Shown: positions 5,020-21,937 of the stretch, piece after piece | Layout: every line of letters starts with the position of its first letter | Position numbering within the stretch: position 1 is the first letter of the stretch | From: Zhenhengia yiwuensis | GTDB taxonomy: Bacteria > Bacillota > Clostridia > Lachnospirales > Cellulosilyticaceae | Assembly (NCBI RefSeq): GCF_014384995.1 | Contig: NZ_JACRSY010000017.1 | Location: forward strand, 62,401 to 86,400 | DNA length: 24,000 bases | Reading direction: 5' to 3' | Notes under the pieces: model-generated | Told to the model about the DNA's origin: nothing | Seen by the model: the letters and a program-made list of their open reading frames with translations, nothing else | Databases searched by the model: none | Position numbers and translations under genes: made by a program

Positions 5020-5064
5020 GTAACTATTCCTCCTCTTTCTTCTATTTCTATATCTCTATTCCAT

Positions 5065-5250
5065 TTAAGACATCTTTAATCTCATTACTTCATTTTTACT
5101 AAGTCTAACACCCCTGGCCATCTTGGCATGTTCTGGTACCCATTCGCGTATATCGTACTTAAGCTCTTTATCATTCACACTAAGTGCATGGATCAGAGTT
5201 ATGTCTCTATTTAACATTAGATGCGGATTCTTTATTATCTTTTCGCCCAT
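5065..5250 (-). pseudogene. Truncated PC4/YdbC-like gene remnant (61-codon ORF)
   Basis: ..SVNDKELKYDIREWVPEHAKMARGVRLSKNEVMRLK.. is homologous to fragment 3364-3497. Its 5' part overlaps the end of the 487-aa CDS by 44 nt. Compared with copy A, its C-terminus looks shifted by 1 nt (out-of-frame KDVLNGIEI* against copy A's KEVLKGIEI*). Confidence 0.45.
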
Positions 5251-6670: not shown

Positions 6671-6684
6671 AAATATCCCTTCCT

Positions 6685-6764
6685 AAAATAAGCCCAGCAC
6701 AACCACACCTTCAAACTTCATTCTAGTTATCTACGTGGTCATGTTGGGCTTCTTGTTATAAATT
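6685..6764 (-). repeat. Cassette-junction hairpin repeat, copy C
   Basis: Outer stem AAGCCCAGCA (6690-6699) / TGTTGGGCTT (6742-6751), extendable to ~17 bp imperfect (..ACCAC/GTGGT..). The repeat overlaps the last 3 codons of the DUF45 gene. Confidence 0.8.
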
Positions 6765-7469
6765 CATATTAATTCCGTTATTTTTTAACCATTCTTTTCG
6801 CACTTCATAGTCTGGCATAATACTTCCTAGTAAATCCCAGAAGGCTTTTGAATGATCTTTATGATACATGTGGCAGAGCTCATGGACAATGATGTAGTCT
6901 AGTGCATGTGCTTTTGCCATGACACAGCGCCAGTTGAATAAGAGCTCATTGTTAATTGTGCAGCTTCCCCAGCGCTTTTTCTGTTCTTTGATTTTCACTG
7001 TCGTAGGCTTTTTGTCAAAGAAGGCTTGGTAATATTTGAGCCGTTCTTCAATTTGTTCTTTGGTTTTCGCTCTGTACCAATCTTCCATAGTTGCTTTTAT
7101 GAGGAGTTCATCTTTTACTGGTACAGTGACATAGAATTTGCCTCTATAAAGCTTTGTGGATGCTTTTCCTACTGTTTCATCGACTACGATTTGCATGGCA
7201 TAGTTACGCCCTAAGTATACAAAGGCTTCACCATTAACGAATTCTCTAGTAATCTTTTGAGCCTGCATATTTCTAAATGTAAACATCTTTTGTATAAGCC
7301 AACTAGCTTTTTGTTTAACCTTCTGTTTAATGACTTCTTCGGTTGTTCCTATAGGTGCTGTTACTACAATTTTACTTGGTGGCTCTATAGCCATTTCCAT
7401 TGTTTTTCTTTCAGAGTAGGTCACTTCAAAAGTTAAGGCTGTTGTCCCATATTGTAGTGTCAATTCCAT
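6756..7469 (-). CDS. DUF45/YgjP-like (M48/WLM-type) zinc metallohydrolase, 237 aa
   Basis: HExxH in IIVHELCHMYHKDH near the C-terminus. The size and the position just downstream of hsdR are typical of YgjP-like proteins linked to Type I R-M operons. Confidence 0.85.
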   Translation of the reverse strand: MELTLQYGTTALTFEVTYSERKTMEMAIEPPSKIVVTAPIGTTEEVIKQKVKQKASWLIQKMFTFRNMQAQKITREFVNGEAFVYLGRNYAMQIVVDETVGKASTKLYRGKFYVTVPVKDELLIKATMEDWYRAKTKEQIEERLKYYQAFFDKKPTTVKIKEQKKRWGSCTINNELLFNWRCVMAKAHALDYIIVHELCHMYHKDHSKAFWDLLGSIMPDYEVRKEWLKNNGINMNL

Positions 7470-7479
7470 CTTATCGCCT

Positions 7480-10400
7480 CTATTCTAATTCTTTGAAGTG
7501 GGTTTTAGCCAGGTTAAGAAGTGGCTGAATCATCTGGTTAATAATCGGTAACTTCTTGATTGTCTTCATATGATTTTTAATAAGCATCATCTTGATTGCT
7601 CTTTCAATGTCATTTGCTTTTGTAGGATTTGTTACCCAATCAATAAGGTAATGATCTTTAACTACTTGTTTGACATCTTTAGCAATACTCTTTGATAACT
7701 CAATGATATCATTGGAGATATAAACTTCTCCCGAATCCTTAACAACCCCTTCTACACTCTCTTCTTCTAGCAAATACTTTTTCACTACTTCAAAGAATGC
7801 AAACTCTTTTTCATCCAGTCCTAGTGTCTCTGAATGTGACTTTGTACCTTCCATGACTTCTTTTTCAATGAATTCTTCTAACTGTTTCTTACGTTTTACC
7901 CAGTCATGTTCTGTATCATTTAAGAGTTTTTGAAGTTTCTCTAGCAAACTGGTATAAAACACAGGGTTATCATCCATTCTTACTGCAATAGCATGTTTTA
8001 CAGCATGTTCCATAGCTGATGCTTGAGATTCATCTGAATGCATGGTATTAATCTTCATTTTAAAGTCATCTTCAAAGAGAGTAATTGGTGCAATCCACTG
8101 TTGCACACCTAAAGACTTCAGATGTTTTTCAATAATCTCCTTAACCTTTTCTCCACAATCACTAATATCTAAGTTCTGTTCTGGTGTATACTTTGCTTTT
8201 GCAGCCACACGAATATAACTTAGCCATTTCACATCATTGAGAATATCTGCCCCTACATGTGCTGGTAGAAGTGCTTCAACTATACCTTGAAAGGTTTTAT
8301 AACCTATTTCAAACTCAGCTCGCTTATCTTCTGGCTCAATCACTTTGATAAGTTCATCTAAGTTGTTAGGATCTACACCTCTAAACATATTCATGACTGC
8401 TTCACGATAAGAAAGCATTTCTTTGTACAGGTCATCTATAGATTGCATTGGTTTTCCAAGTTCTTCTTTGTCAAAGATGGCTAAAGCTTCTTCCAGATAG
8501 TTGGAAATACCGTAGTAATCTACGACATAGCCACATTGCTTGATGATTTTGTTCTTCTCTATGGTCCCATTTTCTAATTGCTTTTGGATTTCTTGCGTAT
8601 TGGTACGGTTTACCCTTGCTATAGCTTGTAGTAAGTTATGTTCTTTGAGTGGTCTATCTAAATACATGACTTGTTCAATAGGTGCATCGAATCCTGTAAG
8701 TAGCATATCTTTTACAATTAAAAAACATAACTTATCTTTGTCTATTGGCTGTTTGAAATGTTTAATGATTTCTTCTTGTTCAGCCTTTGTGGTAAAGTGT
8801 TCCTTCAAGTGTGGAGGATCATTGTTATCTCCTGAGAAGATGACTCTTACTTCTAGCTCTTCACCAATAATGTCTTTCATATGTTTCTTAAGAGCTCTTT
8901 CATAACGTACACAAGCTTCTCTACTAATACAAACTATTTGAGCCTTAAAGCCATTAGGCATAATGTTATCTCTATAGTGTACTAACATATCTTTAGCAAT
9001 ATCTTCGATGCGGACTTCTGCTTCTGCAATAGCTTTGTTGGTTGCATACTTCTGTTTAATGGCTTCTTTTTCTTCATCTGTTCTATCACTGAACATCTGA
9101 TCAAAGAGTTCATCTAAGCTTTTACCTTCTAGTTGAAGGGCTGGCTTTCTACCTTCATATACAATTTTAACTGTTGCCCCATCTTGTACAGCTTCTTCAA
9201 TACCATATTTATCGATGTAGCCACCAAATGTTCTAGGTGTAGACTTATCTTCTTTATCAATAGGTGTTCCTGTAAAACCTACAAATACTGCATTAGGTAG
9301 TGCGACTCTCATATTGCCTGCTGTATCTTTATATTGGCTACGGTGTGCTTCATCTGTTAGAACAATGACATTCGGTGTAGTCGTTAATACCTCATAAGGT
9401 TTCACAAACTTCTTCTTAACCTTCTTGCCATTTTCAATGACTTCACGTTCTTCTGTCTCACTTTCAAACTTCTGAATAGTCGTCATGATAATTTGAGCTT
9501 TAGCAGCTGATAAAAGCTCTTTCATCTTCACAATTTTATCAGCACGAACTGGCTCTGTTATTTTACAGAGGTTCTTGTAGAAGGTTGCAAAGATTTGTTT
9601 ATCGAGGTCAATACGGTCTGTTACAACCACTATGGTTGAATCCATAAGCCCTTCCATACGTCTAAGCTTTCTTGCTAGGAATACCATTGTCAGTGATTTA
9701 CCACTTCCTTGTGTATGCCATACGACCCCACCACGTCCAATAGAGTTTTTCCCTTTTACCATACGGTCTATTGCCTTATTAACAGCTCTAAACTGCTGGT
9801 AGCGACAGACCTTCTTAATAATACGACCATCATCAGGCTCAAAAAGTAGGAAGTTACGCATCAAGTCAATCAGGTTATGCTTTTCTAGCATGCCTTGAAT
9901 AAAGATATTTTGAGGACTGTTCTCTACATCTTCAATATCTTTCTTTTTGAATGGATAAGGATCTTTCCACTCTACATAGTGATTGTATTGTGAGCTAATA
10001 GTCCCGACATAAGCATGGTATTTATTTAAAATACCTGTAAAGAAGTTGGTATAAAATAGATGTGGTGCACCTTCTCCAAGTGCTTCATCTCGAATATTCA
10101 TATAACGGCAAAGCTGTTCATAACCTTGCTTCTTCCCTACACTGACCTTATTTTGTTTTTCTAAGAAAGGTGATTTACACTCTAAGACTACCACGGGTAT
10201 ACCATTAACAAATACCACAATATCCGGGAAGATACTTTTACCACTCAGTGTCTGAACTTCAAATTGACGCACGACTAGGAAATCATTGTTCAGTGGTTCA
10301 TCCCAGTCAATAAAATGTACTGTATGTTTTTTCTTTAAGCCACTACCATCTAAGTCTTGTTCTACTGTATAAGTAAGGTTCACCATGTCATCATAAAGCT

Positions 10401-10671
10401 TCTCATTAATCTCAAGTAGGCTACTACCCAAATGGTCTGCTGTTTGCAGGTAACGGATTGTTCTCTGTAAATTTCCCTGGCTTATCCAAGGGTTTAAACG
10501 TCGTAAAGCCACTTCTAAATGCTTACTAAGTACCACTTCTCTTAAGGATTCACGTTCCCCTTGTTCAGGTCTTAGCTCTTTACCATGAATATAGGTATAT
10601 CCTAGTATCTCTTTCATATAGTCTACAGCTGGTGCTTCAACTAAGGTTTCTTCATTTCCCAAATAGGACAT
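7480..10671 (-). CDS. hsdR: Type I restriction endonuclease subunit R
   Basis: N-terminal nuclease motif PDIVVFVNGIPVVVLECK, helicase Walker A HTQGSGKSLTM, DEAH box VLTDEAHRSQ, and ~1060 aa length. I prefer the start at 10671 (MSYLGNEE) with RBS GGGGGTGA over the upstream ATG at 10689. Confidence 0.95.
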   Translation of the reverse strand: MSYLGNEETLVEAPAVDYMKEILGYTYIHGKELRPEQGERESLREVVLSKHLEVALRRLNPWISQGNLQRTIRYLQTADHLGSSLLEINEKLYDDMVNLTYTVEQDLDGSGLKKKHTVHFIDWDEPLNNDFLVVRQFEVQTLSGKSIFPDIVVFVNGIPVVVLECKSPFLEKQNKVSVGKKQGYEQLCRYMNIRDEALGEGAPHLFYTNFFTGILNKYHAYVGTISSQYNHYVEWKDPYPFKKKDIEDVENSPQNIFIQGMLEKHNLIDLMRNFLLFEPDDGRIIKKVCRYQQFRAVNKAIDRMVKGKNSIGRGGVVWHTQGSGKSLTMVFLARKLRRMEGLMDSTIVVVTDRIDLDKQIFATFYKNLCKITEPVRADKIVKMKELLSAAKAQIIMTTIQKFESETEEREVIENGKKVKKKFVKPYEVLTTTPNVIVLTDEAHRSQYKDTAGNMRVALPNAVFVGFTGTPIDKEDKSTPRTFGGYIDKYGIEEAVQDGATVKIVYEGRKPALQLEGKSLDELFDQMFSDRTDEEKEAIKQKYATNKAIAEAEVRIEDIAKDMLVHYRDNIMPNGFKAQIVCISREACVRYERALKKHMKDIIGEELEVRVIFSGDNNDPPHLKEHFTTKAEQEEIIKHFKQPIDKDKLCFLIVKDMLLTGFDAPIEQVMYLDRPLKEHNLLQAIARVNRTNTQEIQKQLENGTIEKNKIIKQCGYVVDYYGISNYLEEALAIFDKEELGKPMQSIDDLYKEMLSYREAVMNMFRGVDPNNLDELIKVIEPEDKRAEFEIGYKTFQGIVEALLPAHVGADILNDVKWLSYIRVAAKAKYTPEQNLDISDCGEKVKEIIEKHLKSLGVQQWIAPITLFEDDFKMKINTMHSDESQASAMEHAVKHAIAVRMDDNPVFYTSLLEKLQKLLNDTEHDWVKRKKQLEEFIEKEVMEGTKSHSETLGLDEKEFAFFEVVKKYLLEEESVEGVVKDSGEVYISNDIIELSKSIAKDVKQVVKDHYLIDWVTNPTKANDIERAIKMMLIKNHMKTIKKLPIINQMIQPLLNLAKTHFKELE

Positions 10672-10694
10672 TCTTTCACCCCCATTCAAACTGA

Positions 10695-11936
10695 TTATTT
10701 ATCTGTGGTAACTCTTATCTTTCCTGTTAGAAGTTGTTGCATAAGGCCTTTTTTTAATTCTGTTATTATTTCTTTTTTCTTATAATAACTCTGTAATTTT
10801 TCATCTATCGTATATAAAACATTTACAATTTTTTCTTGTTCTTCTCTAGTTGGTATAAATACTTTAAAGTTTTTAATAATTTCTTGACTAATGTTAGGCT
10901 GTGCTCCCCCAGCGCCTAGCTCAATTAACTTGTCTTTATTAAACTCTAAAGTATAGTACAGATATTCATAATTAACTTTTTCCTCATTACAAATAATACT
11001 ACAACATGCTTGGTTAGTAGTAACTTCTGTTTTATTAATACTTAATTTACCTATTGTTGCACCGTACATAGCTATAATTACTGCATTTACTGGAACTATT
11101 TTTGCAGATGAATTCCTTACGGCCTCTTGTGTTATTTTTTCTTCTGTATCATAAATATATTTATTTGATAGCTCTCCTGTTTTTAGCCATGGAATATTAC
11201 CATTTAAATAATACTCTTTGTTTTTTCTACTAGGTGTTCCCCCACTAGTAGTATTAGCTACTTCTCTAATCAGCTTCACTTCCCACTCTTTAGGAATAAT
11301 ACCTATTTCTGTTTCTTTGAACTCTGTATTCCCTATACCTTTTGTGAGAAGTTGTTGCATCAGACCTTTTTTAAGCTCCTTTGTTTTTTCAATGAGTTGG
11401 TCTACATTGTCAATTTGTTCATCTACAGTTGATAGGATATCAGCTATTTTTTGCTGTTCTTGGAGTGGTGGGTAATATAATGGTAGGTTTTTGAAAACAT
11501 TGTAACTAATTTGCTTCCCATCTCTTATCCCAATAACAGAACTACTTAAACTATCAATAAACTTCTTACTTTTGAATAAATACTTATAATAATTAGAATG
11601 TATATTTATTTTGTTATTCAATATCGTATACGCTGGACTTACTATTCCCCTTATTCCTGAGTACTCTAATCCCCCCTGAAAAGAACGAAGGCTTATAATA
11701 AAGTTACCTTTTTCAACTAATTTATAGCTTTCAATACTTTTATCTGAAGTTTTAATATCTATACCACACTCATCTCTATACATTGTTCCTCTATCTTGAG
11801 TTACTGCAAGTATAGGTTCTTTGGGGTAACCTTTTAATGCCACATTTTCAAACACTTCTCCTGCTTTCTTTATATCCCACTCATTAGGAATAAGTCCTAA
11901 TTCTGTATTTTTGAAGCCATCCTTTACAGTCTTCAT
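10695..11936 (-). CDS. hsdS: Type I R-M specificity subunit S with two target-recognition domains
   Basis: Two TRDs, each followed by a conserved spacer repeat LKKGLMQQLLT (central and C-terminal), plus central PPLQEQQKIADILS. I prefer the start at 11936 (MKTVKDG) with RBS AGGAGGA. The upstream ATG at 11963 lies inside the hsdM 3' end. Confidence 0.9.
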   Translation of the reverse strand: MKTVKDGFKNTELGLIPNEWDIKKAGEVFENVALKGYPKEPILAVTQDRGTMYRDECGIDIKTSDKSIESYKLVEKGNFIISLRSFQGGLEYSGIRGIVSPAYTILNNKINIHSNYYKYLFKSKKFIDSLSSSVIGIRDGKQISYNVFKNLPLYYPPLQEQQKIADILSTVDEQIDNVDQLIEKTKELKKGLMQQLLTKGIGNTEFKETEIGIIPKEWEVKLIREVANTTSGGTPSRKNKEYYLNGNIPWLKTGELSNKYIYDTEEKITQEAVRNSSAKIVPVNAVIIAMYGATIGKLSINKTEVTTNQACCSIICNEEKVNYEYLYYTLEFNKDKLIELGAGGAQPNISQEIIKNFKVFIPTREEQEKIVNVLYTIDEKLQSYYKKKEIITELKKGLMQQLLTGKIRVTTDK

Positions 11937-11949
11937 ACTTATTCCTCCT

Positions 11950-13467
11950 TTATATAATGTCAAATCCTAATTCCTTAAGGTAGCCATTTAGTCTTTGTTG
12001 TGTATTTTTTTCTCTTTCACTAAGTTGCTTAATTTCTTTAATTACATCATTAATATTTACTTGCTCTTCTTCCTCACTTGTATCAACATAACGCGATATA
12101 TTAAGGTTGTACTCGTTATCTTCTAGCTGTGAAATCGATACTACTTTAGAATATTTATCTATATCTTCATATTTTTCAAAGGTGGATATTATCTTAGCTA
12201 TATCTTCTTCTCGTAATACATTTTTAGTTTTCTCTTTACTAAACTCATTGCTAGCATCTATGAATAAGACTTTTTCTTTACGTTCTATAGGTTTATTCTT
12301 ATTCAGTACGATAATAGCTGCTGGAATGCTTGTGCCATAAAAGACATTTTGTGGAATACCAATAATAGCTTCTACTAGGTCATCTTTTAAGAATCCTGTA
12401 CGGATCTTTGCCTCAGCACCACCTCTAAAGAGTACACCATGAGGTACTACTGTAGCCATTTTACCTTTTGCATTTAGGCTTGTTACCATATGAGATACGA
12501 ATGCCAGATCACCATAGCTTTTTGGTGGAATACCATAAGGGAAGCGGTGAAAGGCATCACTTGCAGCTTCTTCAGCTCCCCAGTTTTTAAGTGAGAATGG
12601 TGGGTTTGCTAATACCTTATCAAAAGCTTTTAGTACACCACCTTCTGTATGCATTGGTGTACGGATCGTATCCCCTTTTTGGATATCCGCACCTTTAGCA
12701 CCATGGAATAGCATATTCATCTTACAAATAGCCCAAGTTGATAGGTTAATCTCTTGACCAAATAGTGAAATATTCTTGTGATTGCCACCATGTTTTTTGA
12801 TGTATTCTAAACTTTGAATAAGCATACCACCAGAACCACATGTTGGGTCATAGATACGGTCGCCCTCTACTGGTTTTAAGATACCTACCATTGTTTTAAC
12901 TACTTCTGTTGGTGTATAGAATTCTCCACCTTTAGCTCCGCCATCATCAGCAAACTTTTTGATTAAATATTGGTAAGCATCACCTAACATATCTTCTGAT
13001 TCTAGGTTACTATTTGCTAGTTTCATGCTGCTAAATAGGATTAACATTTGTGATAGCTTTTTATCCGATACACGTTCCTTGTCATTGTAGTTAGTTGTTG
13101 TAAGTACACCAATAAGCTCACTATTTCTAGGCTCGTCCTCTAGTGCTTTAAACGCCTTGTCTAGTGCTGGTCCAATGTTTAGTGATAAATCCTTTAGCTT
13201 AGCCCATCTAGCCGCTTCTGGTACATAGAAGGTCTCATATAAAGAGGCATCATTAAGTAACTCTGTGATCGTTTCATCATCAAGCCCTTGCTCTTTAAAT
13301 TCGGCTTCGTGCTTTGCTTTTTCTTCATCAAATTCATCATTAAGACGCTTTAAGAAAAGCATACCAAAGATATAGTCCTTGTATTGAGCTGCATTAAGCT
13401 CACCTCTTAATATATCTGCACATTCCCATAGCTTTGACTCTAGTTCTTGTAGTGTTAGTAGTACCAT
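11950..13467 (-). CDS. hsdM: Type I R-M N6-adenine DNA methyltransferase subunit M
   Basis: HsdM N-terminal pattern [29 protein letters not shown] motif [11 protein letters not shown], catalytic motif IV NPPF. RBS TTGGAGG. A possible extended -10 (TGATAAAAT) lies at 13512..13504. Confidence 0.95.
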
Positions 13468-13608
13468 GTTTCAGCCTCCAATTTTTCGCATAGTATTAGT
13501 ACTATTTTATCACTTTTTGTCGTAGTTTTATAGTTAAACATTGTTTTTTACATTAAAATAAGGCCTAGCCTAACTAAGCCTTTAAACAATATTCTTTGTC
13601 CCTAACTT

Positions 13609-13995
13609 TTATCCAAATAATTTTTCTATTAAAAACATCCCCACCGTTAGTAAGGGCATACATAGTAAACCTTGTATCTTTCCTGATGTATATATATCTT
13701 TATTTTCGATAAGAGCAGCATATGCAATTCCAAACAATACTAGGATTATTGGATAAAATAATTCATCAACAATAGGGAACGCTGACATTTGCATGCTTTT
13801 ATTTATAAATAGAACCGTAGTTCCATATGATATTATGCTTAAGATCCCCCATATAAATCTTGCCAAATTGTCACTTTCAACAAATTCCCCTTTATTTACT
13901 TCATAAACAATACTTACAAAATATTTAATGGTCATTAGCACCGGTAAGAGTATAATAATATAGTAGAGTAATTTTAAAGCTATAGTTATATCCAT
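13609..13995 (-). CDS. Integral membrane protein, 128 aa, about 4 TM helices
   Basis: RBS GGGGGGA and strongly hydrophobic segments throughout. No functional motif. Confidence 0.6.
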   Translation of the reverse strand: MDITIALKLLYYIIILLPVLMTIKYFVSIVYEVNKGEFVESDNLARFIWGILSIISYGTTVLFINKSMQMSAFPIVDELFYPIILVLFGIAYAALIENKDIYTSGKIQGLLCMPLLTVGMFLIEKLFG

Positions 13996-14275
13996 AACTT
14001 ATCCCCCCTTCACTATTATCTATATTCTAGCTTGTACAAATTATTCGTTAAATAAATGTATAAACTCTTACACAAATCTTCTTACCCTTAGTAACCAACT
14101 ATCTCAGTGTCTTGTCTAATCTTCTAATTGTTCCTCCACTTCTATCATCTATAACTTTTCACACAACCTATTCAAAATCTACACAACTCTTTCCCTTAGT
14201 ATTTTTTCATCATATCCCTTGCTATTAACTCTTTACAGAGCTAACATGTAGTACTACCTGAAAGAAGGTATTATA

Positions 14276-14650
14276 ATGCGTCAAAGACCTTTACTAAGTG
14301 TGACCATTCTGTATGAGACACCACTAGATCCAAATCTCTGCAAGAAATTACTTGCATATTTTAAGCCTTATGAACACTCTACTCCCATCGAGATTAAGGG
14401 TATTCATTCTGTAAGTAAAATTATACGCATTCCTAGAGCATCATGGAATCCAGCCTTTGATACTGAATTTACTTACCTTATACGAACTCCCAATCAACTC
14501 TATGACATACTTCTTAAGCTGATTGATCTTGCGTTAAAGCTTCTTAATGAAATTGGATATCATGATATAGCTGATACGCTTACGATTCTTGTCCCTTTTG
14601 CTCCAAACGATGACCTCTCCTACACTTTCAAGTGGAAACTTCTCTACTAA
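14276..14650 (+). CDS. Hypothetical protein, 124 aa
   Basis: The only plausible plus-strand ORF here. RBS GAAAGAAGG, followed by a hairpin at 14655-14692. Confidence 0.55.
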   Translation: MRQRPLLSVTILYETPLDPNLCKKLLAYFKPYEHSTPIEIKGIHSVSKIIRIPRASWNPAFDTEFTYLIRTPNQLYDILLKLIDLALKLLNEIGYHDIADTLTILVPFAPNDDLSYTFKWKLLY

Positions 14651-14654
14651 GCAC

Positions 14655-14932
14655 TTAGACTACTTATCACTTTTAAATGGTAAGTAGTCTAAATCTTTGT
14701 CACTCTTTCAAAATCAATTCATTTCAATCCCTAAAACCCTTATGTATCAAGGCTTGATATACATTTACGCAAATATCTGATTTACGCGCTTTTGTGTACC
14801 CCCATAGTCTTTGGGAACATCAAAATATGTTCCCTCACACGTATTAACACACTAAAAAAGGCTAGAGCAAATTGCTCTAAGCATTGGTATTACTTACTTT
14901 TCTTTAACTAGGTATGCAATCGTCTCAACGTG
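14655..14932. repeat. Direct repeat copy 1: diverged duplicate of the rlmD 3' end plus its downstream region
   Basis: Hairpin TTAGACTACTTA/TAAGTAGTCTAA (14655-14692) matches 17414-17447. Block 14763-14932 (TTTACGCAAATATCTGATTT..GTGTACCCCC..GGCTAGAGCAAATTGCTCTA..TTTCTTTAACTAGGTATGCAATCGTCTCAACGTG) aligns with 17746-17917. Confidence 0.8.
14894..14932 (-). pseudogene. Orphan 3' remnant of rlmD (last 12 codons plus stop)
   Basis: The minus strand reads CAC GTT GAG ACG ATT GCA TAC CTA GTT AAA GAA AAG TAA = HVETIAYLVKEK*, against HVETIAYLVKEN* at the end of the intact gene. Homology stops abruptly at 14932/14933. Confidence 0.8.
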
Positions 14933-14977
14933 TAATAGCTAGTCTAAACTACAAGTATATTAATACTTCTTTCTTAT

Positions 14978-15844
14978 TTAATATCTTATTTTAAAATCCA
15001 TTTCTTCTACATTTTCTTTTAACCTATTTATATCATATTCCATAGAATTTATATCTCTTCCAATAGAACTTATTTCTCGTTCAATAGAATCTATGTCATT
15101 TTGAAGTATATAATTATGTTCTTCTTGATCTGATATCTTACCTCTTAGTCTACTGATATCTGATTCTACATAATATATTCTATCTTCGAACTCAGTTTTC
15201 ATTTCATCTATCTGTCTTTCTAAATAATCATAATTATCTTGTATGATTAACAATTCACGTGTAACCCTATCTATCTCATTGCCATCATTATCTACATATA
15301 GTTTTTCTGCTTTATTTCCACACTCTCTACATGTAGGTATTTTCTCACTTTTTAACAGCTCAAAAATATTGTTTTTACAGCTGCATACCTCTTTTAGTGA
15401 AACATAGTCATCACATTTAATATCTCGAATATCACTTCCACACTCTAGGCACTTAACTTTAGGTGTTTTATACGTACTATCTATAACAAAAAATCTACTT
15501 TCGCACTGTTCACATTTTACTGTATTAAGTAAGTGTTCTCTTTCCTCTTCTGTAATTTCATTTCCTTTATCATCTATGGCTATCCATTCTATTTCTTGAT
15601 TGCATTTACCACATTTTATTTTCTTAATAGTTATCTTGTCTAAATTATCAATTTTACTTATTTTAAATGATCCATCTAAACAATTACAATGTTTTTTCAG
15701 ACCTCTATACTCTTTAGGTTTAACCGTGATCTTGACCTCATTACATTTTTGGCAAACAAATTTTATAAATCCTTTTTCTTCTTCTTTTAAAAACTTAACC
15801 TCATGACATACATCACAACTAAAAGTAGTTACCATCTTATTCAT
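14978..15844 (-). CDS. Multi-zinc-ribbon plus coiled-coil protein, 288 aa
   Basis: Four Cys pairs-of-pairs: CxxC-16-CxxC, CxC-22-CxxC, CxxC-17-CxxC, CxC-15-CxxC. This forms an internal two-fold duplication, each half ending in D(D/N)(K/D)GNEI..E.LL. The C-terminal ~90 aa is a heptad-like charged repeat (DISRLRGKISD..DIDSIEREISSIGRDINSMEYDINRLKENVEEM). Confidence 0.8.
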   Translation of the reverse strand: MNKMVTTFSCDVCHEVKFLKEEEKGFIKFVCQKCNEVKITVKPKEYRGLKKHCNCLDGSFKISKIDNLDKITIKKIKCGKCNQEIEWIAIDDKGNEITEEEREHLLNTVKCEQCESRFFVIDSTYKTPKVKCLECGSDIRDIKCDDYVSLKEVCSCKNNIFELLKSEKIPTCRECGNKAEKLYVDNDGNEIDRVTRELLIIQDNYDYLERQIDEMKTEFEDRIYYVESDISRLRGKISDQEEHNYILQNDIDSIEREISSIGRDINSMEYDINRLKENVEEMDFKIRY

Positions 15845-15861
15845 GCACTCCCCCTAATCTT

Positions 15862-16218
15862 TTATTCATACTCTATTTTTTTTACATATAAATAAGGCAC
15901 TTCTTTTAATCCATAATAGCGATCTTCCTCCTCTTGTGAAAAATGATATCTACATTTCATTACCTCATACACTTTGCAACTTGCTGTTTCTTTAATTAAA
16001 TGCTCATTATTTGTTTGTTTTAAGAAGTCAACAAACTCCGGTGTAGTCTGATGTAAATACTTAATTTCAGCAGTGTATCCCTCTGAAGCATATACCTCTA
16101 GCTCCATCTCATGTAATCCATTAATGATTTCATTTCTTAACGTGTTAATTTGTCTCTTTACTACTACTTCTTCACATTTAAGTCTGTAATATTCCTCTAA
16201 GGTTTTGACATCGAACAT
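15862..16218 (-). CDS. Hypothetical protein, 118 aa
   Basis: RBS AGGAGAG. The stop lies 17 nt before the start of the zinc-ribbon gene, suggesting co-transcription. No motif recognised. Confidence 0.7.
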   Translation of the reverse strand: MFDVKTLEEYYRLKCEEVVVKRQINTLRNEIINGLHEMELEVYASEGYTAEIKYLHQTTPEFVDFLKQTNNEHLIKETASCKVYEVMKCRYHFSQEEEDRYYGLKEVPYLYVKKIEYE

Positions 16219-16306
16219 ATTATTCTCTCCTACAATGGATTATCAATCCATTTATATGAATTGTTGGCCTGTCATTATTACAACTTTTATATTAACCCTC
16301 TAATAG

Positions 16307-17290
16307 TTATTCATGCCTTCTTTCTGCATCCTTTGCACTATAATGAGTATCTTTTCTTTTTTTCTCTCCATTCACTACTTCAATATTACTCCTGCGTTTC
16401 ATCTCTTCTTGCACCTGTTCAAATACCTCAATAGGAATGATAGGTTCATGTGCCTCTTCCATAATAAATTGGTCTTGCTGCCCACGGTTGACTTTTTGTC
16501 TATTATTTGGAAACCCTGTAGTATATGTTTTACCTACCCGTACATTACCCATGTATTTTTCGTTCGTAAGCATGGTTTGAATGGTGCGTTTAGACCATCT
16601 CTCTTTGCCTGTAGGCGAATTGATATTCTTATCAGCTAACTCTTCCATAATCATATCTACACTATACCCACTTAGGTATAACTCAAAGATTTGCCTTACT
16701 ACAATCGCTTGCTCTTCATAAATCATTAGCTCTCCATCTTGGTTTTTTTTATATCCAAAGCATTTGCGTGTATAAAGCTTTGATCTTCCAGATTTAAATC
16801 CACTTTTAAATCCCCATTTGATCGCTTCACTTAATCCCTCACTTTCTGCTTGTGCGAATGCAGCGTGCACTGACATTATGAGCTCTGTTTCAGCATCACT
16901 TGTACTAATATTTTCCTGCTCAAAGCGTACCTCAACACCTAACCATTTTAGTTTAGTAACTGTCTCTAGTAAATCAACAGTATTTCTGCTAAATCGACTA
17001 ATTGACTTGACCAAAATGATATCAAATAGATTCTCATAACTATCAAGCATCATCTTATGAAATCCTGGACGAAAAGTATTCCTTCCGGTATCTTGATCCT
17101 CATAGACTCCATACAAAGTCCACTGAGAGTTGCATTTAACGACTTGCTCCAGACCATACTTCTGGGCTTTTAAACTTTCTTCTTGTATATCGCTTAGTGT
17201 ACTTACACGGCAGTAGATTGCCACTCTTTTATCATTTCTTACTGTGGGTGGCCTAACCTCTACATTACGTCTTCTATTGTTTTCCATCAT
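16307..17290 (-). CDS. Serine recombinase (resolvase catalytic domain plus recombinase domain), 327 aa, lacking the zinc-ribbon/coiled-coil domain of large serine recombinases
   Basis: Catalytic-serine motif VAIYCRVSTLSD, SISRFSRN motif, and recombinase-domain patterns (YTRKCFGYKK, SPTGKERWSKRTIQTMLTNEKYMG, HEPIIPIEVFEQVQ). The ORF stops at ..THYSAKDAERRHE*, about where the Zn-ribbon domain normally starts. Confidence 0.9.
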   Translation of the reverse strand: MMENNRRRNVEVRPPTVRNDKRVAIYCRVSTLSDIQEESLKAQKYGLEQVVKCNSQWTLYGVYEDQDTGRNTFRPGFHKMMLDSYENLFDIILVKSISRFSRNTVDLLETVTKLKWLGVEVRFEQENISTSDAETELIMSVHAAFAQAESEGLSEAIKWGFKSGFKSGRSKLYTRKCFGYKKNQDGELMIYEEQAIVVRQIFELYLSGYSVDMIMEELADKNINSPTGKERWSKRTIQTMLTNEKYMGNVRVGKTYTTGFPNNRQKVNRGQQDQFIMEEAHEPIIPIEVFEQVQEEMKRRSNIEVVNGEKKRKDTHYSAKDAERRHE

Positions 17291-17413
17291 AAGACCTCAT
17301 CATTTGTATTTTGACTAACTATCTTTTAAGTATTGCCACTTACCCAATACCTAGTCAAAATTTTCAACATGACGGCTACCTTTACAATTCGGTGAGATAA
17401 GTTAATGTTGCAA

Positions 17414-17917
17414 TTAGGCTACTTAACTAAGTAATAAGTAGTCTAAAACTGCATTTCCGTTTCAACTGCTCTTTTTCCCATTGTATGAATAACATATTTC
17501 ACCTTTTATTTTGTATTCTTAAGTTTATTTATAATTATATTAATGCATAAAAACGGACATCAAACTCGTTCATCACAATGTATCACATCACATACCTGAC
17601 ACCTTTAAAGCCTTTTATTTACAAGCTTTTCCCTAGCTTTCACTTGTGTTACAGTTCTGATATTCCCCCTTCGCTAAGTAGCTTTATAATAGGCTGCCAT
17701 AAGTTCCTTTTATCTCAATTCTAAGTTTTAATACATCTATATAAACTTTTACGCAAATATCCCTGATTTCGTTTATTAGTGTACCCCCCTATCCATGTAG
17801 GAACATATTTTTACCCAATTCCTCCCCAAAAACACATACAAAAAGGCTAGAGCAAATTGCTCTAGCCCTTGGTATTCCTTAGTTTTCTTTAACTAGGTAT
17901 GCGATTGTCTCAACGTG
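17414..17917. repeat. Direct repeat copy 2: rlmD 3' end plus downstream region, contiguous with the intact gene
   Basis: Hairpin TTAGGCTACTTA/TAAGTAGTCTAA (17414-17447) and block 17746-17917 match copy 1. About 300 nt between the two blocks (17448-17745) has no counterpart in the ~70-nt spacer of copy 1. Confidence 0.8.
17845..17867 (-). terminator. Rho-independent terminator of rlmD
   Basis: GGCTAGAGC-AAATT-GCTCTAGCC perfect stem, followed on the minus strand by TTTTTG. A slightly damaged duplicate lies at 14860-14882. Confidence 0.7.
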
Positions 17918-19246
17918 ATGTGTATGAGGGAACATATCTACGCAGCATACTTTCTCTACTTTATAACCAGATTGTTCGAATACTGGAAGGTCTCTTGCAA
18001 GGCTTGTTGGTTTACATGAAATGTAGAGAAGTTCTTTAGCATCAAAACCAATAATTTTATCTATTGCTTTTGGATGAATTCCTTCACGTGGTGGATCAAG
18101 TACGATAAGTTCTGGTTTCACGTGGAAGTTTTCTACTTCCTTAAGAACATCTCCTGCTACAAAGTGGCAGTTTGTAAGATCATTAAGTTTAGCATTTTCT
18201 TTAGCTTTTTCTACTGCTTCTTCTACAATTTCAATACCGTATACTTCTTTTGCTTTGGTTGCCATAATTTGTGCAATGGTACCTGTACCTGAATAAAGGT
18301 CAAATACTACTTTACTTGTGATATCTTGTGGCATATCAAGTGCTGTCTTATAAAGAAGTTCTGCACCTTTTGTATTAGTTTGAAAGAATGAGTAAGGAGA
18401 AATATTGAATTGAAGTCCTAAAATTGTTTCTGTAAAGGCATCTTTACCATAAAGTACTCTCGTAGAGTCTGGTTTAACAGCATCTGCAAGTGTATCAGAA
18501 TACGTATGAAGGATCCCTGCAATTTTGCCTTTTGTTCCTAAGTCTACAAGGTAGTTAGCAAGCTCTGTAAAGTCAAAGTCTCTTTGTGTCGTTGTAACGA
18601 TATTAATCAGAAGGTCTCCTGTTGTTTCAGAACGTCTTACAATAAGGTAGCGTAAGAAGCCTTCATGGATTTTCTTTTTATAGAATGATAGATTGAAAGA
18701 CTGTGCATAGCGTAATACAAATCTTAAAATCATATTAAAGTCTTCATCTACAATTTTGCAGCCATCTACTGTAATAATATCAAATGTACTATTTTTGCGG
18801 TGCATACCTAGTGTCATTGGGCCGTCTTTGCAGGCATCTCCAAAGGAGAATTCCATTTTGTTACGGTAAGCCCATTCAGATGGACTACCTAAAATCCCCA
18901 TATCTTCATATCCTGTAACACCAGCATTTTGAAGAAGTGTTTGAACTTGTTCATGTTTATGTTCAAGCTGATTTTCATAGCTTAAATGCTGCATAGCACA
19001 GCCACCACATAGACCAAAATATTCACATGAAGGTTTTACAAAATGAGCAGGGTTTTCAAGATGCTCTAGAGCACGTCCCTCCCATGTCCCTTTTCTTTTA
19101 CGTTGTAATCTTACGCGTACTTTCTGACCTGGAAATGTATCAGGTACTATAACAGGAATACGCTCTTCTTCTATATACATAATTCCTTTGTTAGGAAATT
19201 TTACTTTTTCAATTAGACCGTCGATAATTTCATTCTTTTTAGCCAT
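17879..19246 (-). CDS. rlmD: 23S rRNA (uracil-C5)-methyltransferase, RumA/RlmD (TrmA) family, 455 aa
   Basis: N-terminal TRAM-like region, Fe-S cysteines CEYFGLCGGCAMQH, SAM motif DLYSGTGTI, DPPREG, and catalytic-Cys motif YISCKP. Confidence 0.9.
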   Translation of the reverse strand: MAKKNEIIDGLIEKVKFPNKGIMYIEEERIPVIVPDTFPGQKVRVRLQRKRKGTWEGRALEHLENPAHFVKPSCEYFGLCGGCAMQHLSYENQLEHKHEQVQTLLQNAGVTGYEDMGILGSPSEWAYRNKMEFSFGDACKDGPMTLGMHRKNSTFDIITVDGCKIVDEDFNMILRFVLRYAQSFNLSFYKKKIHEGFLRYLIVRRSETTGDLLINIVTTTQRDFDFTELANYLVDLGTKGKIAGILHTYSDTLADAVKPDSTRVLYGKDAFTETILGLQFNISPYSFFQTNTKGAELLYKTALDMPQDITSKVVFDLYSGTGTIAQIMATKAKEVYGIEIVEEAVEKAKENAKLNDLTNCHFVAGDVLKEVENFHVKPELIVLDPPREGIHPKAIDKIIGFDAKELLYISCKPTSLARDLPVFEQSGYKVEKVCCVDMFPHTHHVETIAYLVKEN

Positions 19247-19350
19247 AAAGACTCCTTTGCATATATTTAGTTTAATAAATTGACTTTTTTATTGTTACAC
19301 ATTGCATTAGGATTTTCAAGTAGTTTCAGATAGACCATGAATGAATATAT

Positions 19351-19381
19351 AAAAAAGCTAGACATATGCCTAGCTTTTTTA
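19351..19381. terminator. Bidirectional rho-independent terminator
   Basis: AAAAAAGCTAG-ACATATGC-CTAGCTTTTTT lies immediately after the stop of the 107-aa gene in the minus direction. Confidence 0.65.
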
Positions 19382-19705
19382 CTATGCTTCTTGATGCAGA
19401 AGCGCATTTATTGTTTCTAAAATCTCAAACTCAAGCACACTATTAAAACCTTCCTCTTTGAGTGTCTTAAGTTGTTCTAACACACTATGGAGCTGCATAA
19501 AGTAATTCCATTCCCATTTTCCTTCTTCATAGGCCTTGAGCACTTCTTTTTTCTCTTCCCTAGCCTGTGCTACTGTTATCTCACCTTTTGCATATTGCAT
19601 ATATAATCCTCTAGAGGCAATATAGTAGGACTGTTCATAGGAAGCAAGCCCTTTAGGCATCTCTAAACCTTTTTTCGCAATTTTATCTAATTCTTTAACC
19701 GTCAT
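19382..19705 (-). CDS. Hypothetical protein, 107 aa, helical
   Basis: Clean ORF 18 nt downstream of the preceding gene, followed by a strong terminator. Confidence 0.65.
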   Translation of the reverse strand: MTVKELDKIAKKGLEMPKGLASYEQSYYIASRGLYMQYAKGEITVAQAREEKKEVLKAYEEGKWEWNYFMQLHSVLEQLKTLKEEGFNSVLEFEILETINALLHQEA

Positions 19706-19723
19706 AGTATCCTCTCATTCTCC

Positions 19724-20587
19724 TTAAGGATTTCTACTTTTAGTATAACAAAAAGGATATATTTTTTGAAGTTTTACTTTATAGGCTATTCCTTCCTTTA
19801 AGTTGAATGGCCATTCTAGTATTACAGTATTTGTAATTTCAATTTCTTCTTTGCAGGCCCTTTTTTTAATATCTTCCATAGCCTGGTGAGCACCTTGAAC
19901 AACGCCTGCCCTATCTAATCGACCTAATTCATAACCCATAATCACATTTTTTCTCGTAGCATTTAAAACTGTTTGGTTAAACTTTTCTACTACGCCATCA
20001 TTCATCATGGCAATAGCATGACGTACTTCATACTCTTCTTGCTGAATGGTTTGTAAAATGATACTCCAAATCCATTCTAGCATAGAGATAAGTTGGCTAT
20101 GGACACCTATTACAATGGCGTAATCAAAACTATTCTTTTCTATAGGAATGGCATGATAGATTGTCTTTCGATAAAGATGCTCAAGTACTTCTAATACCAC
20201 TTCTACTAAGCAGTTACACTTTATGTGAATACCCTTTTCCCTCACTTCATCTACTAAATAAGCAGCATATTGTCTATAATCTTCATCCGTTATGCCCACA
20301 AAATCTATAACTCTTGTATGAATATTTTTAGAATCGCCCAAGTTATAGCGATAGATAGCAGCTTGCATAGCGTTTTCATCTTGGTCTAATAAAGTAATAG
20401 ATTGAAAGTGACTGCTTAACCTTTCAAGATCTAAGTCATTGCATCTTCCTGCACCCCAAATAGCTAGACTTTGATTTGACAAAGTATGGGTGATAATATA
20501 ATCTGTTAGATCTTTTCTATAGTCTGTCCACTCTGTAAATGCATTGTCCATAACTTGGAGTGTTCGTAATTGATCATATAAATTCAT
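19724..20587 (-). CDS. Hypothetical protein, 287 aa, possibly Rossmann-fold/SAM-methyltransferase-like
   Basis: LAIWGAGRCNDLDL (GxGxxxD-like), then ITLLDQD (acidic end of beta-2), then DYAIVIGV. The fold assignment is tentative. Confidence 0.6.
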   Translation of the reverse strand: MNLYDQLRTLQVMDNAFTEWTDYRKDLTDYIITHTLSNQSLAIWGAGRCNDLDLERLSSHFQSITLLDQDENAMQAAIYRYNLGDSKNIHTRVIDFVGITDEDYRQYAAYLVDEVREKGIHIKCNCLVEVVLEVLEHLYRKTIYHAIPIEKNSFDYAIVIGVHSQLISMLEWIWSIILQTIQQEEYEVRHAIAMMNDGVVEKFNQTVLNATRKNVIMGYELGRLDRAGVVQGAHQAMEDIKKRACKEEIEITNTVILEWPFNLKEGIAYKVKLQKIYPFCYTKSRNP

Positions 20588-20666
20588 GTTTATAAAGCTC
20601 CTTGCTGTGGGATACTTTTAGATTAGTACCTCTTCTAAGTATAGCACAGGTTTAAGGAAAATAGGA

Positions 20667-21371
20667 CTAGAAGGTAAAAATCCATGCTTTTGGTATATAC
20701 TGTTCTATAATATGTTGATTTAAATTAAACCAGCTCATACATTTATCTAGTATAATCGCATCACTTGAAACAACACCAGGTAATTGCTCTAATACCCTAT
20801 CTACCTCACTCAGTACGGATACTGTGATTTGGGTAGGATAAGACTTGGCAAGCTCCATAATAAGCACTTTTAATCGCCCTGAATTAGATACAGGCTGGTC
20901 TAAATAAATCTTTGCTTCTTTTACGTGTAGGTTTCTGAGAGTCTGTAATATCAGTTTAATAGCTTGTTCTGTCTGAGTAATAATGCCATATGTCCCCCGT
21001 AAGCCTGCTAAATCTCTTAGTGTACCATCCATTCCTTTTATGAGGAGGGACCGAGATAAAGCGACTTCTAATGTAATGATTGTATTAAAGCCATCTATAT
21101 GCAGACAAGATGGAAGCAGCTTAGATGAAAGTTCCTTTTCTTTTCGTTTTTGTAGCTGCCAAGATGCCGAAGTCATTCTAACAAGTGCTAGACGCTGACG
21201 CTCAGATAATAAATAATGATTTCCTATAAAAGTCGAGGCCGATTTAATAGGATAATTTCTATTCACGAGATAATATAACTCTTCACTTGCCTGTTCTAAT
21301 GTATCTACCCATTGATTCCCAAATTCTATTTCATCTTTCACTACAAAACCACGTCTTACATTTTTACTCAT
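20667..21371 (-). CDS. Hypothetical protein, 234 aa, DUF434-like N-terminus with a possible PIN/NYN-like C-terminal domain
   Basis: ELYYLVNRNYPIKSASTFIGNHYLLSERQRLALVR resembles my memory of the DUF434 signature. IDGFNTIITLE..DGTLRDLAG resembles the associated C-terminal domain. Not verified. Confidence 0.6.
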   Translation of the reverse strand: MSKNVRRGFVVKDEIEFGNQWVDTLEQASEELYYLVNRNYPIKSASTFIGNHYLLSERQRLALVRMTSASWQLQKRKEKELSSKLLPSCLHIDGFNTIITLEVALSRSLLIKGMDGTLRDLAGLRGTYGIITQTEQAIKLILQTLRNLHVKEAKIYLDQPVSNSGRLKVLIMELAKSYPTQITVSVLSEVDRVLEQLPGVVSSDAIILDKCMSWFNLNQHIIEQYIPKAWIFTF

Positions 21372-21937
21372 TTAGCTCAATCCTTCTTTAGCTCTACTCT
21401 TATTATTAGAGACTAGTTTGCCATACTCTTATATACATTATCCATATAGATCTCTATTCACTTCTAATCATATGCCTAATGTACGAATCCCCCTAAAAGA
21501 ATTGGGGTGTTGAATAGGCTGGTGAATTGCTTGACCATTCATAGAATAAACTTTATAAGCTTTTTTATCTAATCGTTTTAGCGTAAAATAATAGGATATA
21601 CTGCTTAGCAGATGCTTTATAGCCTTATGGACTTTCTTCGATTTTTCTTCTATATTTCATTAGGTTTTCAGAGTAATATTTTGTATATCCACACTTTTAG
21701 GGGTTCTTTGCCTTTCTAATACATACAGCTCATGTATTCTATTTCTTTCCTTGTTCTTGTATGATTTAGTATTCCTATGTAGGGAGTATTTATGGGTATA
21801 ATCTCCTTTCTTAGCATAAAAAATACTCCTAGTAAAGTTTTTACTAAGAGCATCGTTTATTATTTGATTTATGAAATAACTATTCATTTGTTGAGTTTAA
21901 GACTATAACTGATAGGCTACTCGATAAAGTGGAATTT

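Follow-up and report, generated by a model that had tools for sequence, protein, structure and literature searches.

A short serine recombinase unit probably integrated by site-specific recombination at the 3' end of rlmD in Zhenhengia yiwuensis

Analysis of a 24,000-nt stretch of the Zhenhengia yiwuensis contig NZ_JACRSY010000017.1 (hereafter the window, to whose positions the coordinates refer) indicates that the segment 14933-17917 is very probably a self-contained integrative unit that replaces the 3' end of rlmD, a 23S rRNA uracil-5-methyltransferase gene, and that entered by site-specific recombination at an 11-bp core. The unit has a core-to-core period of 2985 bp, and its integration is presumably catalyzed by the 327-aa serine recombinase that it encodes. 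An initial annotation of this DNA had described a 2.5-kb module bracketed by two copies of the rlmD end. The duplication does bracket the recombinase gene, but the unit also includes the second copy and extends from core to core. Features of the window are collected in Table 1. Loci and contigs used for comparison carry L-numbers, among them L001 (Ca. Niameybacter stercoravium), L003 (UMGS1389), L081 (Clostridium sp.), L097 (GCA_034093515.1) and L083, the recombinase of which is labeled Zhenhengia sp. by NCBI.

Duplication of the rlmD 3' end

Formal alignment located the proposed duplication at the positions first given for it, with a score far beyond those of shuffled sequences. The two copies form a direct repeat (14757-14932 versus 17741-17917) that aligns with gaps over 182 columns at 76.4% identity, with a local score of 86 as compared to 12.5 +/- 1.7 (maximum 19) in 200 shuffles and a BLAST E value of 4e-28. 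An ungapped 87-nt part of the repeat (14846-14932 versus 17831-17917) is 89% identical. Common to both copies are the rlmD terminator hairpin (placed by a terminator scan at 14857-14880 in copy 1 and at 17842-17870 in copy 2), a conserved block GGGGGTACAC...GATATTTGCGTAAA and the last 12 rlmD codons, which encode HVETIAYLVKEN followed by a stop in the intact gene and HVETIAYLVKEK followed by a stop in an orphan remnant.

A hairpin located farther out had also been counted as shared between the copies. The arms of the two outer hairpins (14655-14692 and 17413-17447) are indeed alike (TTAGACTACTTA; 94% complementary), but only these arms are held in common, their match is weak when taken alone (E about 0.06-0.13), and the hairpins lie outside of the duplicated segment and represent a dyad motif that recurs in related loci. 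The stretch of roughly 300 nt that was thought to lack a counterpart in copy 1 holds as about 293 nt at 17448-17740, in which no gene remnant, including that of a 129-aa gene present here in related units, was detectable. A third, degenerate repeat copy considered at 14000-14200 was not significant (E 0.38 or worse). Regarding the conserved block, a sequence of the form GGGGG(G)TACAC...GATATTTGCGTAAA lies downstream of the terminator in the window (17741-17800 and 14757-14815) as well as in L081, L083, L097, L106 and L158, with the Clostridium form reading GGGGG..ATACGCA. Among replacement arms, only those of a single subfamily keep it (5 of 51 cores for the pattern applied), and it has no Rfam match, the Rfam scan having returned no RNA family in the whole window.

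Unit boundaries defined by related loci

The boundaries of the unit are defined by comparison with L097, which is 99.3-99.5% identical to the window across 13975-14950 and 17737-21664 and also encodes the exact 124-aa protein of the window. Between these flanks L097 holds an insert of 1.97 kb composed of a 129-aa gene and a 328-aa recombinase gene that is ~70% identical in DNA to the recombinase gene of the window. On the rlmD side, base-level alignment shows no difference up to the end of ...ACACATCACGTTGAGAC, and the sequences part at the base that follows, with ~10% divergence across copy 2 and no alignable sequence beyond. On the far side no alignment is possible until an arm is reached that is similar yet distinct in the two units (TAGCTATTA versus TCTCTTTTT), and identity is complete from CACGTTGAGAC on; copy 1 is 99.5-100% identical in L097 even though the adjoining unit there differs. 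Copy 2 thus travels with the unit, since it is ~10% diverged from the L097 allele while the upstream part of rlmD is identical. With both breakpoints at the core, copy 2 and the arm belong to the insert and copy 1 to the sequence beyond it. The last 12 codons of the window rlmD come from the inserted unit. For the remainder of the locus, the RlmD protein is 98% identical to that of Ca. Niameybacter stercoravium and the DNA of rlmD and its upstream genes is 95.7% identical to this same organism.

The core CACGTTGAGAC is located 12 codons before the rlmD stop, where it encodes H-V-E-T, and it is also used in L081, L083 and L107. A break had originally been placed at 14932/14933. Homology does end at this position, but the crossover would have occurred somewhere within the 11-bp core, to which it can be placed no more precisely, and not at that exact base. 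The L097 insert recurs in L083 with 96.8% identity across 2069 bp and with flanks that diverge just outside of it, the left flank being unrelated DNA and the right flank a different type I restriction-modification (R-M) plus AbiH island. Two junctions in L081 read TT[TC]AGACTAA[CT]TATTA-CA[CT]GTTGAGAC followed by an RlmD C-terminal remnant, and a pattern derived from L081, TTAGACTANNTATTACAYGTTGAGAC (motif TTAGACTAnnTATTAC plus core), matches window 14922-14947 with 0 mismatches while matching none of 100 shuffles. The junction composed of P arm, core and rlmD remnant is therefore one that is kept in distant Clostridia. The unit swap in L097, the recurrence in L083 and this conserved junction all back the earlier suggestion of a circular element that carries its own rlmD 3' allele and integrates site-specifically. 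The arrangement that had been named as speaking against mobility, with both copies present and no recombinase module between them, was not found in the loci compared.

A few contig ends deserve separate mention. Contig L098 is 99.98% identical to window 9118-14860, after which 20 nt of unrelated sequence (TGGCTACCGCCACGTCTATT) replace the terminator and rlmD remnant; this end may be another context of the R-M block or an assembly artifact. An odd sequence in the first 47 nt of L091 is a Nextera adapter. Population heterogeneity was considered for L099, L100, L102 and L105, which end within the core, and was rejected as a 35-nt exact repeat in the L097-type unit accounts for these ends.

A conserved half-size serine recombinase

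The recombinase of the unit is composed of a catalytic Resolvase domain (PF00239, E 5.9e-30) and a Recombinase domain (PF07508, E 2.1e-27, residues 192-300) and ends ~25 residues past the latter. Neither a zinc-ribbon/coiled-coil domain nor a third Pfam domain was found in this protein, which ends at residue 327. The 120 best homologues listed (46-100% identical) are almost all 300-353 aa long, with some shorter ones that are probably partial, and more than 100 homologous protein clusters are ~325 aa long. Among 25 aligned members (45-71% identity) the YCRV of the motif YCRVST is invariant, as are R74, D83 and S98, and conservation is at least 90% for the S and T of the motif and for R99 and R102. 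All 25 also have a common C-terminus, ..RRSNIE.V.GK.KRK.THYS.K, past which full-length enzymes run on into a zinc ribbon. Because the length, the catalytic residues and the C-terminal motif are kept in more than 100 clusters, a truncated pseudogene of a large serine recombinase is ruled out. The protein is instead a conserved "half-size" relative of the large serine integrases without their zinc-ribbon/coiled-coil module, and not a fresh truncation.

This assignment is mirrored in alignments and in structure. The protein aligns to residues 69-297 of the 545 residues of SprA (the SPbeta integrase) and to positions 74-364 of the 651 positions of the PHROG 95 integrase profile. Its AlphaFold model (mean pLDDT 81.7) has its best fold matches in SprA, Bxb1 and the phiC31 "N-terminal plus recombinase domain" construct, and covers about 310 of 535 SprA residues in the fold search. 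Resolvase structures match only the N-terminal domain (query residues 51-175 in a sequence search). The protein also differs from the small resolvase/invertase type of about 180-200 aa with a C-terminal helix-turn-helix, as it has 327 aa and a recombinase domain in place of the helix-turn-helix. In the phage collection, DNA-level matches were confined to short stretches of the recombinase gene and involve the recombinase genes of five streptococcal prophages, three of which are named "_rum". In the most distant relatives checked (49% identity; L111 10001-12091 and L112 939-3344), the recombinase gene is convergent with rlmD and located 76 nt from the rlmD stop with an arm-like TTTAAGCTACTTACC between them, and the orientation of the unit differs from that in the window. 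A core-like match with 1 mismatch inside the recombinase gene of these two loci is a coding coincidence involving W-S-K-R codons.

Association of the core with short recombinases

To survey the family, metagenome and IMG/VR contigs were scanned with the recombinase alignment, recombinase ORFs (open reading frames) were sorted by length, and the core was sought on the same strand with the pattern CAYGTNGARAC. The resulting counts are lower bounds because this pattern was matched exactly. A core is present on either side of 39 of 93 short ORFs (270-370 aa) versus 5 of 140 ORFs of at least 420 aa in the same scans. For the short ORFs, the core occurs within 2 kb upstream in 23 of the 63 that have at least 1 kb of upstream sequence and within 5 kb downstream in 16 of the 46 that have at least 2.5 kb of downstream sequence. 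The corresponding figures for the long ORFs are 0 of 127 upstream and 5 of 74 downstream. We estimate the chance expectation of the core at ~0.03 per 8 kb. The junction pattern was not found in IMG/VR.

The 22 non-duplicate distal junctions listed all have the order recombinase, 50-4100 nt, arm, core and RlmD C-terminal remnant, and ahead of proximal cores stands either an intact methyltransferase gene (..DMFPxTxHVET..) or the terminus of a different element. P arms vary with recombinase subfamily (TTTAGACTA.. versus AAATAGCCTAA..), with arms like TTTAGACTAnCTATTA present in most relatives above ~58% identity and arms like AAATAGCCTAA.. in most of the ~45% group. Additionally, to the left of the proximal cores in L115, L198, L176, L175 and L172, the core is adjoined by a left arm of a second type, GACATCAAT-N(9-10)-CTCGTnn. 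This arm is inversely complementary to ATTGATGTC of the RlmD remnant, making a palindromic site, and probably marks the end of another element family with the same core.

Minimal units that hold only a recombinase gene occur in L081 (9698-11047), in L158 and L163 (about 2 kb each), and in L223 and L119, the latter two as tandem recombinase-only units that in L223 comprise two 314-aa genes with a 1.2-kb period. The idea of tandem accretion similar to that of staphylococcal cassette chromosome (SCC) elements, which was also part of the initial annotation, is also supported, as copy 1 heads the next block, L081 has four successive blocks after rlmD, and tyrosine-integrase elements precede a window-type unit elsewhere. 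Tyrosine integrases are located directly after rlmD in L001 and in L002, where an S24 repressor gene stands beside one, and the window's unit, at 99.9% identity, is preceded by unrelated DNA in L087, L088 and L090. The joint in these three loci, written as ..ACACATCAC|GTTGAGAC and also as ..|ACACATCACGTTGAGAC, lies 9 nt upstream of the serine core, and thus other elements insert there and push the whole stack away from rlmD. In L003 the rlmD terminator and its flanks occur again at 19559-19604, 8.2 kb downstream of rlmD and beyond ABC-transporter-sized ORFs of 607 and 608 aa, without a recombinase and without an rlmD coding remnant; this recurrence may be a decayed stack.

Proposed mechanism and alternative explanations

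We propose that the attachment site of a circular form would be composed of the P arm (GTTTAGACTAGCTATTA), the core and a P' arm, the latter comprising the element-borne rlmD 3' end together with its terminator and about 100 nt that lie downstream. Conservative recombination with the rlmD core, in the last 12 codons, would rebuild an intact rlmD because P' carries a copy of the 3' end. The rlmD-side junction would then again resemble an empty target and the older 3' end (copy 1) would end up behind the P arm at the far junction. Since the target would be regenerated, units could stack. The presumed circular intermediate would contain the junction ..GTTTAGACTAGCTATTACACGTTGAGACAATCGCATACC.. (GTTTAGACTAGCTATTACACGTTGAGACAATCGCATACCTAG) and the predicted empty site would read ..CTCATACACATCACGTTGAGACGATTGCATACCTAGTTAAAGAAAAGTAAG.. 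(CCCTCATACACATCACGTTGAGACGATTGCATACCTAGTTAAAGAAAAGTAAG).

Several considerations weigh against this account. The zinc-ribbon/coiled-coil domain is required by known large serine integrases to recognize their sites and for synapsis, which makes the activity of a protein without this domain uncertain. An enzyme acting in trans may have been responsible, the link between the recombinase and the junctions in the window being one suggested by sequence. Neither an excised circle nor an empty site was observed in the loci compared, and an exact look-up of RlmD matched no record. The survey counts were not de-replicated and depend on an exact-match core pattern. In all five layouts seen, the cargo lies beyond the recombinase unit as viewed from rlmD, an order that simple random stacking does not predict; in the proposed model the newest unit always adjoins rlmD, which may explain this order. 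Homologous exchange by way of the conserved flanks is another possible origin of the difference between the window and L097. Finally, the distal end of the R-M block is outside of the window, so the standing of this block as a unit is incomplete.

The best surviving alternative, which we regard as unlikely, is homologous recombination, either through a Campbell-type crossover of a circle that has ~180 nt of rlmD-end homology (an option that the initial annotation had left standing) or through a double crossover in the flanks, with the recombinase gene as a passenger. The repeats are direct and 177 nt long, the copies that flank the L083 unit are nearly identical across ~170 nt and would permit exchange, and the flanks of the window and L097 are 99-100% identical. 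However, the copies in the window are only 76% identical overall, both breakpoints fall at one fixed 11-bp core, a conserved 17-nt arm that is not of rlmD origin abuts this core in unrelated genera, and the link to rlmD cores is specific to the short recombinase family (39 of 93 versus 5 of 140). A Campbell-type event is consequently disfavored.

Marginally less probable still is the possibility that another integrase, a full-length serine or a tyrosine enzyme, made the junctions and that the 327-aa protein is a resolvase/invertase-type enzyme or a decaying fragment, having a different role or no role at all. Tyrosine-integrase elements do use the same hotspot, the 129-aa gene of L081 lies between dyads S1 and S2, which might serve as substrates for a local reaction, and an incomplete literature search found no paper on a relative of large serine integrases that integrates DNA without a zinc ribbon. 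Against this explanation, minimal units hold only the short recombinase gene between two cores (L081, L163, L158 and L223), the length and sequence conservation described above is not that of a decaying fragment, the joints of the tyrosine elements are at a different position 9 nt upstream, and the P arm varies from one recombinase subfamily to another. A last alternative is that the rlmD end was duplicated in tandem locally long ago, without any relation to mobility, and that the recombinase gene lies between the copies by chance. This would agree with the divergence of the copies (76%) and with their different inner spacer, but is very improbable given that L097 has a different unit between identical flanks, that L083 has the L097 unit in other flanks, and that the architecture recurs in Clostridium and many metagenomic lineages.

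With site-specific integration of the unit as the favored explanation, we put forward more tentatively the broader possibility that the "half-size" recombinases of roughly 300-360 aa are an undescribed class of autonomous integrases without a zinc-ribbon/coiled-coil module. Together with their att sites these would form minimal elements of 1.2-3 kb that target the universally conserved H-V-E-T codons of rlmD-type genes, carry a replacement end and regenerate their target. If so, then integration and excision would be one reaction, as the rlmD-side junction is like an empty attB and the distal junction is like attP. This would also allow unlimited stacking as well as the reshuffling or trans-mobilization of adjoining defense islands (R-M, Abi, Gabija-like and toxins), and the units would constitute a serine-recombinase counterpart of the integron or SCC platform in Clostridia.

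Comparison with known systems

Like the large serine integrases (phiC31, Bxb1, A118/LI, SPbeta SprA and TP901-1), the window recombinase has a catalytic domain, a long alpha-E helix and a recombinase domain, and its reaction appears to be a simple, site-specific one that uses a short common core. Large serine integrases recombine attP with attB at a central dinucleotide, their directionality being set by a recombination directionality factor; for the window unit, the exchange is delimited to the 11-bp common core. The window recombinase differs from these enzymes in that the zinc-ribbon and coiled-coil parts, which are involved in outer half-site recognition, synapsis and directionality, are wholly missing. 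In staphylococci, SCC elements integrate at the rlmH (orfX) 3' end by means of the full-length large serine recombinases CcrAB or CcrC, are bounded by repeats of about 15-20 bp, and form tandem composite arrays that include blocks without recombinase genes. The unit resembles these elements in its insertion into the 3' end of a gene for an rRNA methyltransferase without inactivating it, in its bounding direct repeats, in the regeneration of the target and in the formation of tandem composites. Unlike SCC elements, its target is rlmD (tRNA_U5-meth_tr family) and not rlmH, it carries about 177 nt of target-like sequence, and its recombinase lacks the C-terminal half of Ccr-type enzymes. Integrons, with a tyrosine recombinase (IntI), attI and folded attC sites, are different as well, since the window has a serine recombinase and junctions that consist of a linear arm and a coding core and not of attC hairpins.

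The target itself has precedent. In streptococci, rumA (= rlmD) is the target of single serine integrases from integrative and conjugative elements (ICEs), integrative and mobilizable elements (IMEs) and prophages, with tandem accretion on record; examples are ICE_Spy2096_rumA, IME_SpnAP200_rumA, the Phi-m46.1 group and the S. suis "rum" prophages (PMC4701971, PMC5704250, PMC5053989). Prophages of Erysipelothrix also target rumA/rlmD (PMC12785378). The units described here are like the streptococcal rumA elements in having the same target gene, a serine recombinase, several element types at one hotspot and tandem stacks, and like the S. suis rum-site elements in using the same region, the 3' part of the 23S rRNA U5-methyltransferase gene. 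In the streptococcal ICEs and decayed ICEs (dICEs), one att site is inside the integrase gene such that the 3' ends of rumA and int are swapped and frame-shifted (PMC4701971). In contrast, 1375 nt separate the end of the recombinase gene from the junction in the window (51-118 nt in minimal units) and the window RlmD keeps its C-terminus in frame. The recombinases of phi-SsuSSJ27_rum, the rum-named S. suis prophage inspected, are about 413 and 430 aa as compared to the 327 aa without a zinc ribbon in the window, and streptococcal elements have transfer or phage modules while the window unit is without conjugation, mobilization or phage genes.

Accretion has been described for the S. suis rum site and for systems in which cis-mobilizable elements (CIMEs) accompany ICEs (PMC5053989, PMC5704250). 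As in the CIME accretion model of ICESt1/ICESt3 (PMC5704250), a decayed block that keeps its att site would stand beside an incoming element at a regenerated target, and the R-M island of the window fits this description. Unlike in CIME/ICE systems, the incoming element is a recombinase-only unit of 1.2-3 kb and not an ICE or IME.

Other features of the unit

Two dyads with arms that resemble the P arm are located upstream of the recombinase gene and are putative recombinase-binding sites that may serve in autoregulation. Dyad S1 possibly is a recombinase-binding site or a terminator, and in L097 and L083 its arms (TTTAGACTC) change in step with the P arm of that unit. Dyad S2 overlaps a promoter-like TTGACT-18-AATACT (minus strand 17358-17329, from a promoter scan) and may therefore act as promoter plus operator; its arms (TTTTGACTAnnTAT..N22..ATAnnTAGTCAAAA) are kept in L081, L082, L106 and L115.

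Beyond the recombinase, the unit carries ORFs of 118 and 288 aa. The 118-aa ORF has no match in PHROG or PADLOC and is absent from the L097 unit. The 288-aa ORF has only weak, sub-threshold coiled-coil matches and is absent from minimal units (L097, L081c, L163 and L223). That this protein supplies the missing zinc ribbon in trans was rejected as a general need since the minimal units of L097, L083, L081, L163 and L223 lack such a gene. None of the three unit proteins (recombinase, 118 aa and 288 aa) has a conjugation, mobilization or phage domain in Pfam or PHROG searches. The 129-aa gene of related units is located divergently upstream of the recombinase gene in L081, L083 and L097, with the L083 and L081 proteins 37% identical (E 8e-22). 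It is regarded as accessory because it accompanies only 4 of 93 short recombinases.

Table 1. Location of features in the window, with strand and basis of assignment
Feature	Position	Strand	Basis or content
Type I R-M genes hsdM, hsdS, hsdR	7480..13467	-	N6_Mtase 5e-109, Methylase_S 3e-39, SWI2_SNF2/HSDR_N
124-aa ORF, homologue of the 129-aa gene	14276..14650	+	BLASTP, 28% identity, E 2e-13 versus L081 129-aa protein
Dyad/hairpin S3 (TTAGACTACTTA arms), terminator-like for the 124-aa ORF	14655..14692	.	Inverted repeat and terminator scan
Copy 1, displaced older rlmD 3' end	14757..14921	-	Remnant codons (with the core encoding HVETIAYLVKEK and stop), terminator 14857-14880, conserved block
Distal core CACGTTGAGAC, start of orphan rlmD remnant	14922..14932	-	Window/L097 identity resumes here
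P arm of the unit, GTTTAGACTAGCTATTA, distal end	14933..14949	-	L081 pattern match and family junction alignment
288-aa ORF, unit cargo	14978..15844	-	Four CxxC pairs (zinc-ribbon-like), C-terminal coiled coil (translation)
118-aa ORF, unit cargo	15862..16218	-	No convincing Pfam match (one far below threshold)
327-aa serine recombinase	16307..17290	-	Pfam Resolvase and Recombinase, no other domain
Dyad S2 (TTTTGACTAGGTAT-N-ATAGTTAGTCAAAAT)	17308..17361	-	Inverted repeat directly upstream of recombinase start codon
Dyad S1 (TTTAGACTACTTA..TAAGTAGCCTAA)	17413..17447	.	Inverted repeats; arms resemble the P arm of the unit
Unit-specific spacer	17448..17740	-	No counterpart in copy 1; related units have a divergent 129-aa gene here
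Copy 2, unit-borne replacement arm P'	17741..17906	-	Last rlmD codons and stop, terminator 17842-17870, block GGGGGGTACAC..GATATTTGCGTAAA
rlmD, 23S rRNA uracil-5-methyltransferase, 455 aa, intact	17879..19246	-	Pfam tRNA_U5-meth_tr, E 6e-22
Proximal core CACGTTGAGAC, codons H-V-E-T of RlmD, crossover region of the rlmD-side junction	17907..17917	-	Window/L097 identical through core, differ at next base

The defense island behind copy 1

Read on the rlmD strand, copy 1 is followed by the S3 hairpin, the opposed 124-aa ORF, which has no recombinase gene after it, a 128-aa membrane-like ORF, hsdM/hsdS/hsdR, a YgjP-like gene and others. The R-M genes are the cargo of an older block that is headed by copy 1, and the earlier view that this copy marks the rlmD-side boundary of an R-M island fits this arrangement. 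Viewed as a CIME, this block has its proximal site (14922-14949), no recombinase from 14921 to the window start and no second junction in the window. Its far end presumably lies outside of the window or has decayed, and a tblastx comparison of window 1-7500 with 80 rlmD loci gave no match by which the far end of the island could be placed. The block may be movable in cis or in trans.

The gene content behind copy 1 has the appearance of a multi-system defense island. A 487-aa protein (window 5207-6670, minus strand) matches the PADLOC candidate PDC-M36A (E 1.2e-19) and has neighbors of 422, 214 and 110 aa without a family match. A 79-nt element that contains a long inverted repeat (AAGCCCAACA...TGTTGGGCTT) occurs three times (window 3300-3378, 4758-4836 and 6686-6764; 76-100% identical). 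Each copy is located between two minus-strand genes of the defense island, a second repeat pair (3392-3493 and 5075-5176, 78%) adjoins two of the copies, and the 79-nt repeat looks like a cassette-boundary or terminator repeat. Farther away, an XRE-type helix-turn-helix gene and an ImmA/IrrE (Peptidase_M78) gene (506-889 and 1057-1503, plus strand) are opposed to the island genes. A Peptidase_M78 gene occupies the corresponding place in L083, after the R-M/AbiH block of that locus, and the pair in the window may be the start of a further element.

Defense genes are repeatedly found in the block beyond the recombinase unit. For example, this block contains type I R-M in the window and L083, SacI-type R-M in L081, LlaJI-type R-M in L106, and an OLD-family ATPase plus UvrD helicase that is Gabija-like in L163. 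A zeta-toxin-like gene is located inside the first recombinase unit of L081. Past their R-M cargo, L081 and L106 have the same set of Sigma70_r4, AntA/ANT, DUF2800 and PDDEXK_1 genes that is typical of phage-like elements, and the recombinase units in these two loci may be at the edge of larger elements.

Novelty and significance

Targeting of rlmD/rumA and accretion at this site are already known in streptococci. The short recombinase type and the recombinase-only units appear to be undescribed, with no paper on zinc-ribbon-less recombinases of this kind or on recombinase-only units at rlmD found in a literature search that was incomplete and hence provides a weak negative. If the catalytic and recombinase domains suffice for integration, then models that require a zinc-ribbon/coiled-coil module for recognition, synapsis and directionality would want revision, and genome engineering would gain a far smaller scaffold for which an 11-bp core and a 17-nt arm are already defined. 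The order of short recombinase, arm, CAYGTKGAGAC and RlmD C-terminal remnant provides an annotation signature with which such units can be delimited. As the target consists of the conserved HVET codons of RlmD, the potential host range would be very broad. Finally, the arrangement described here suggests how defense islands assemble and are exchanged at one conserved chromosomal site in gut Clostridia.

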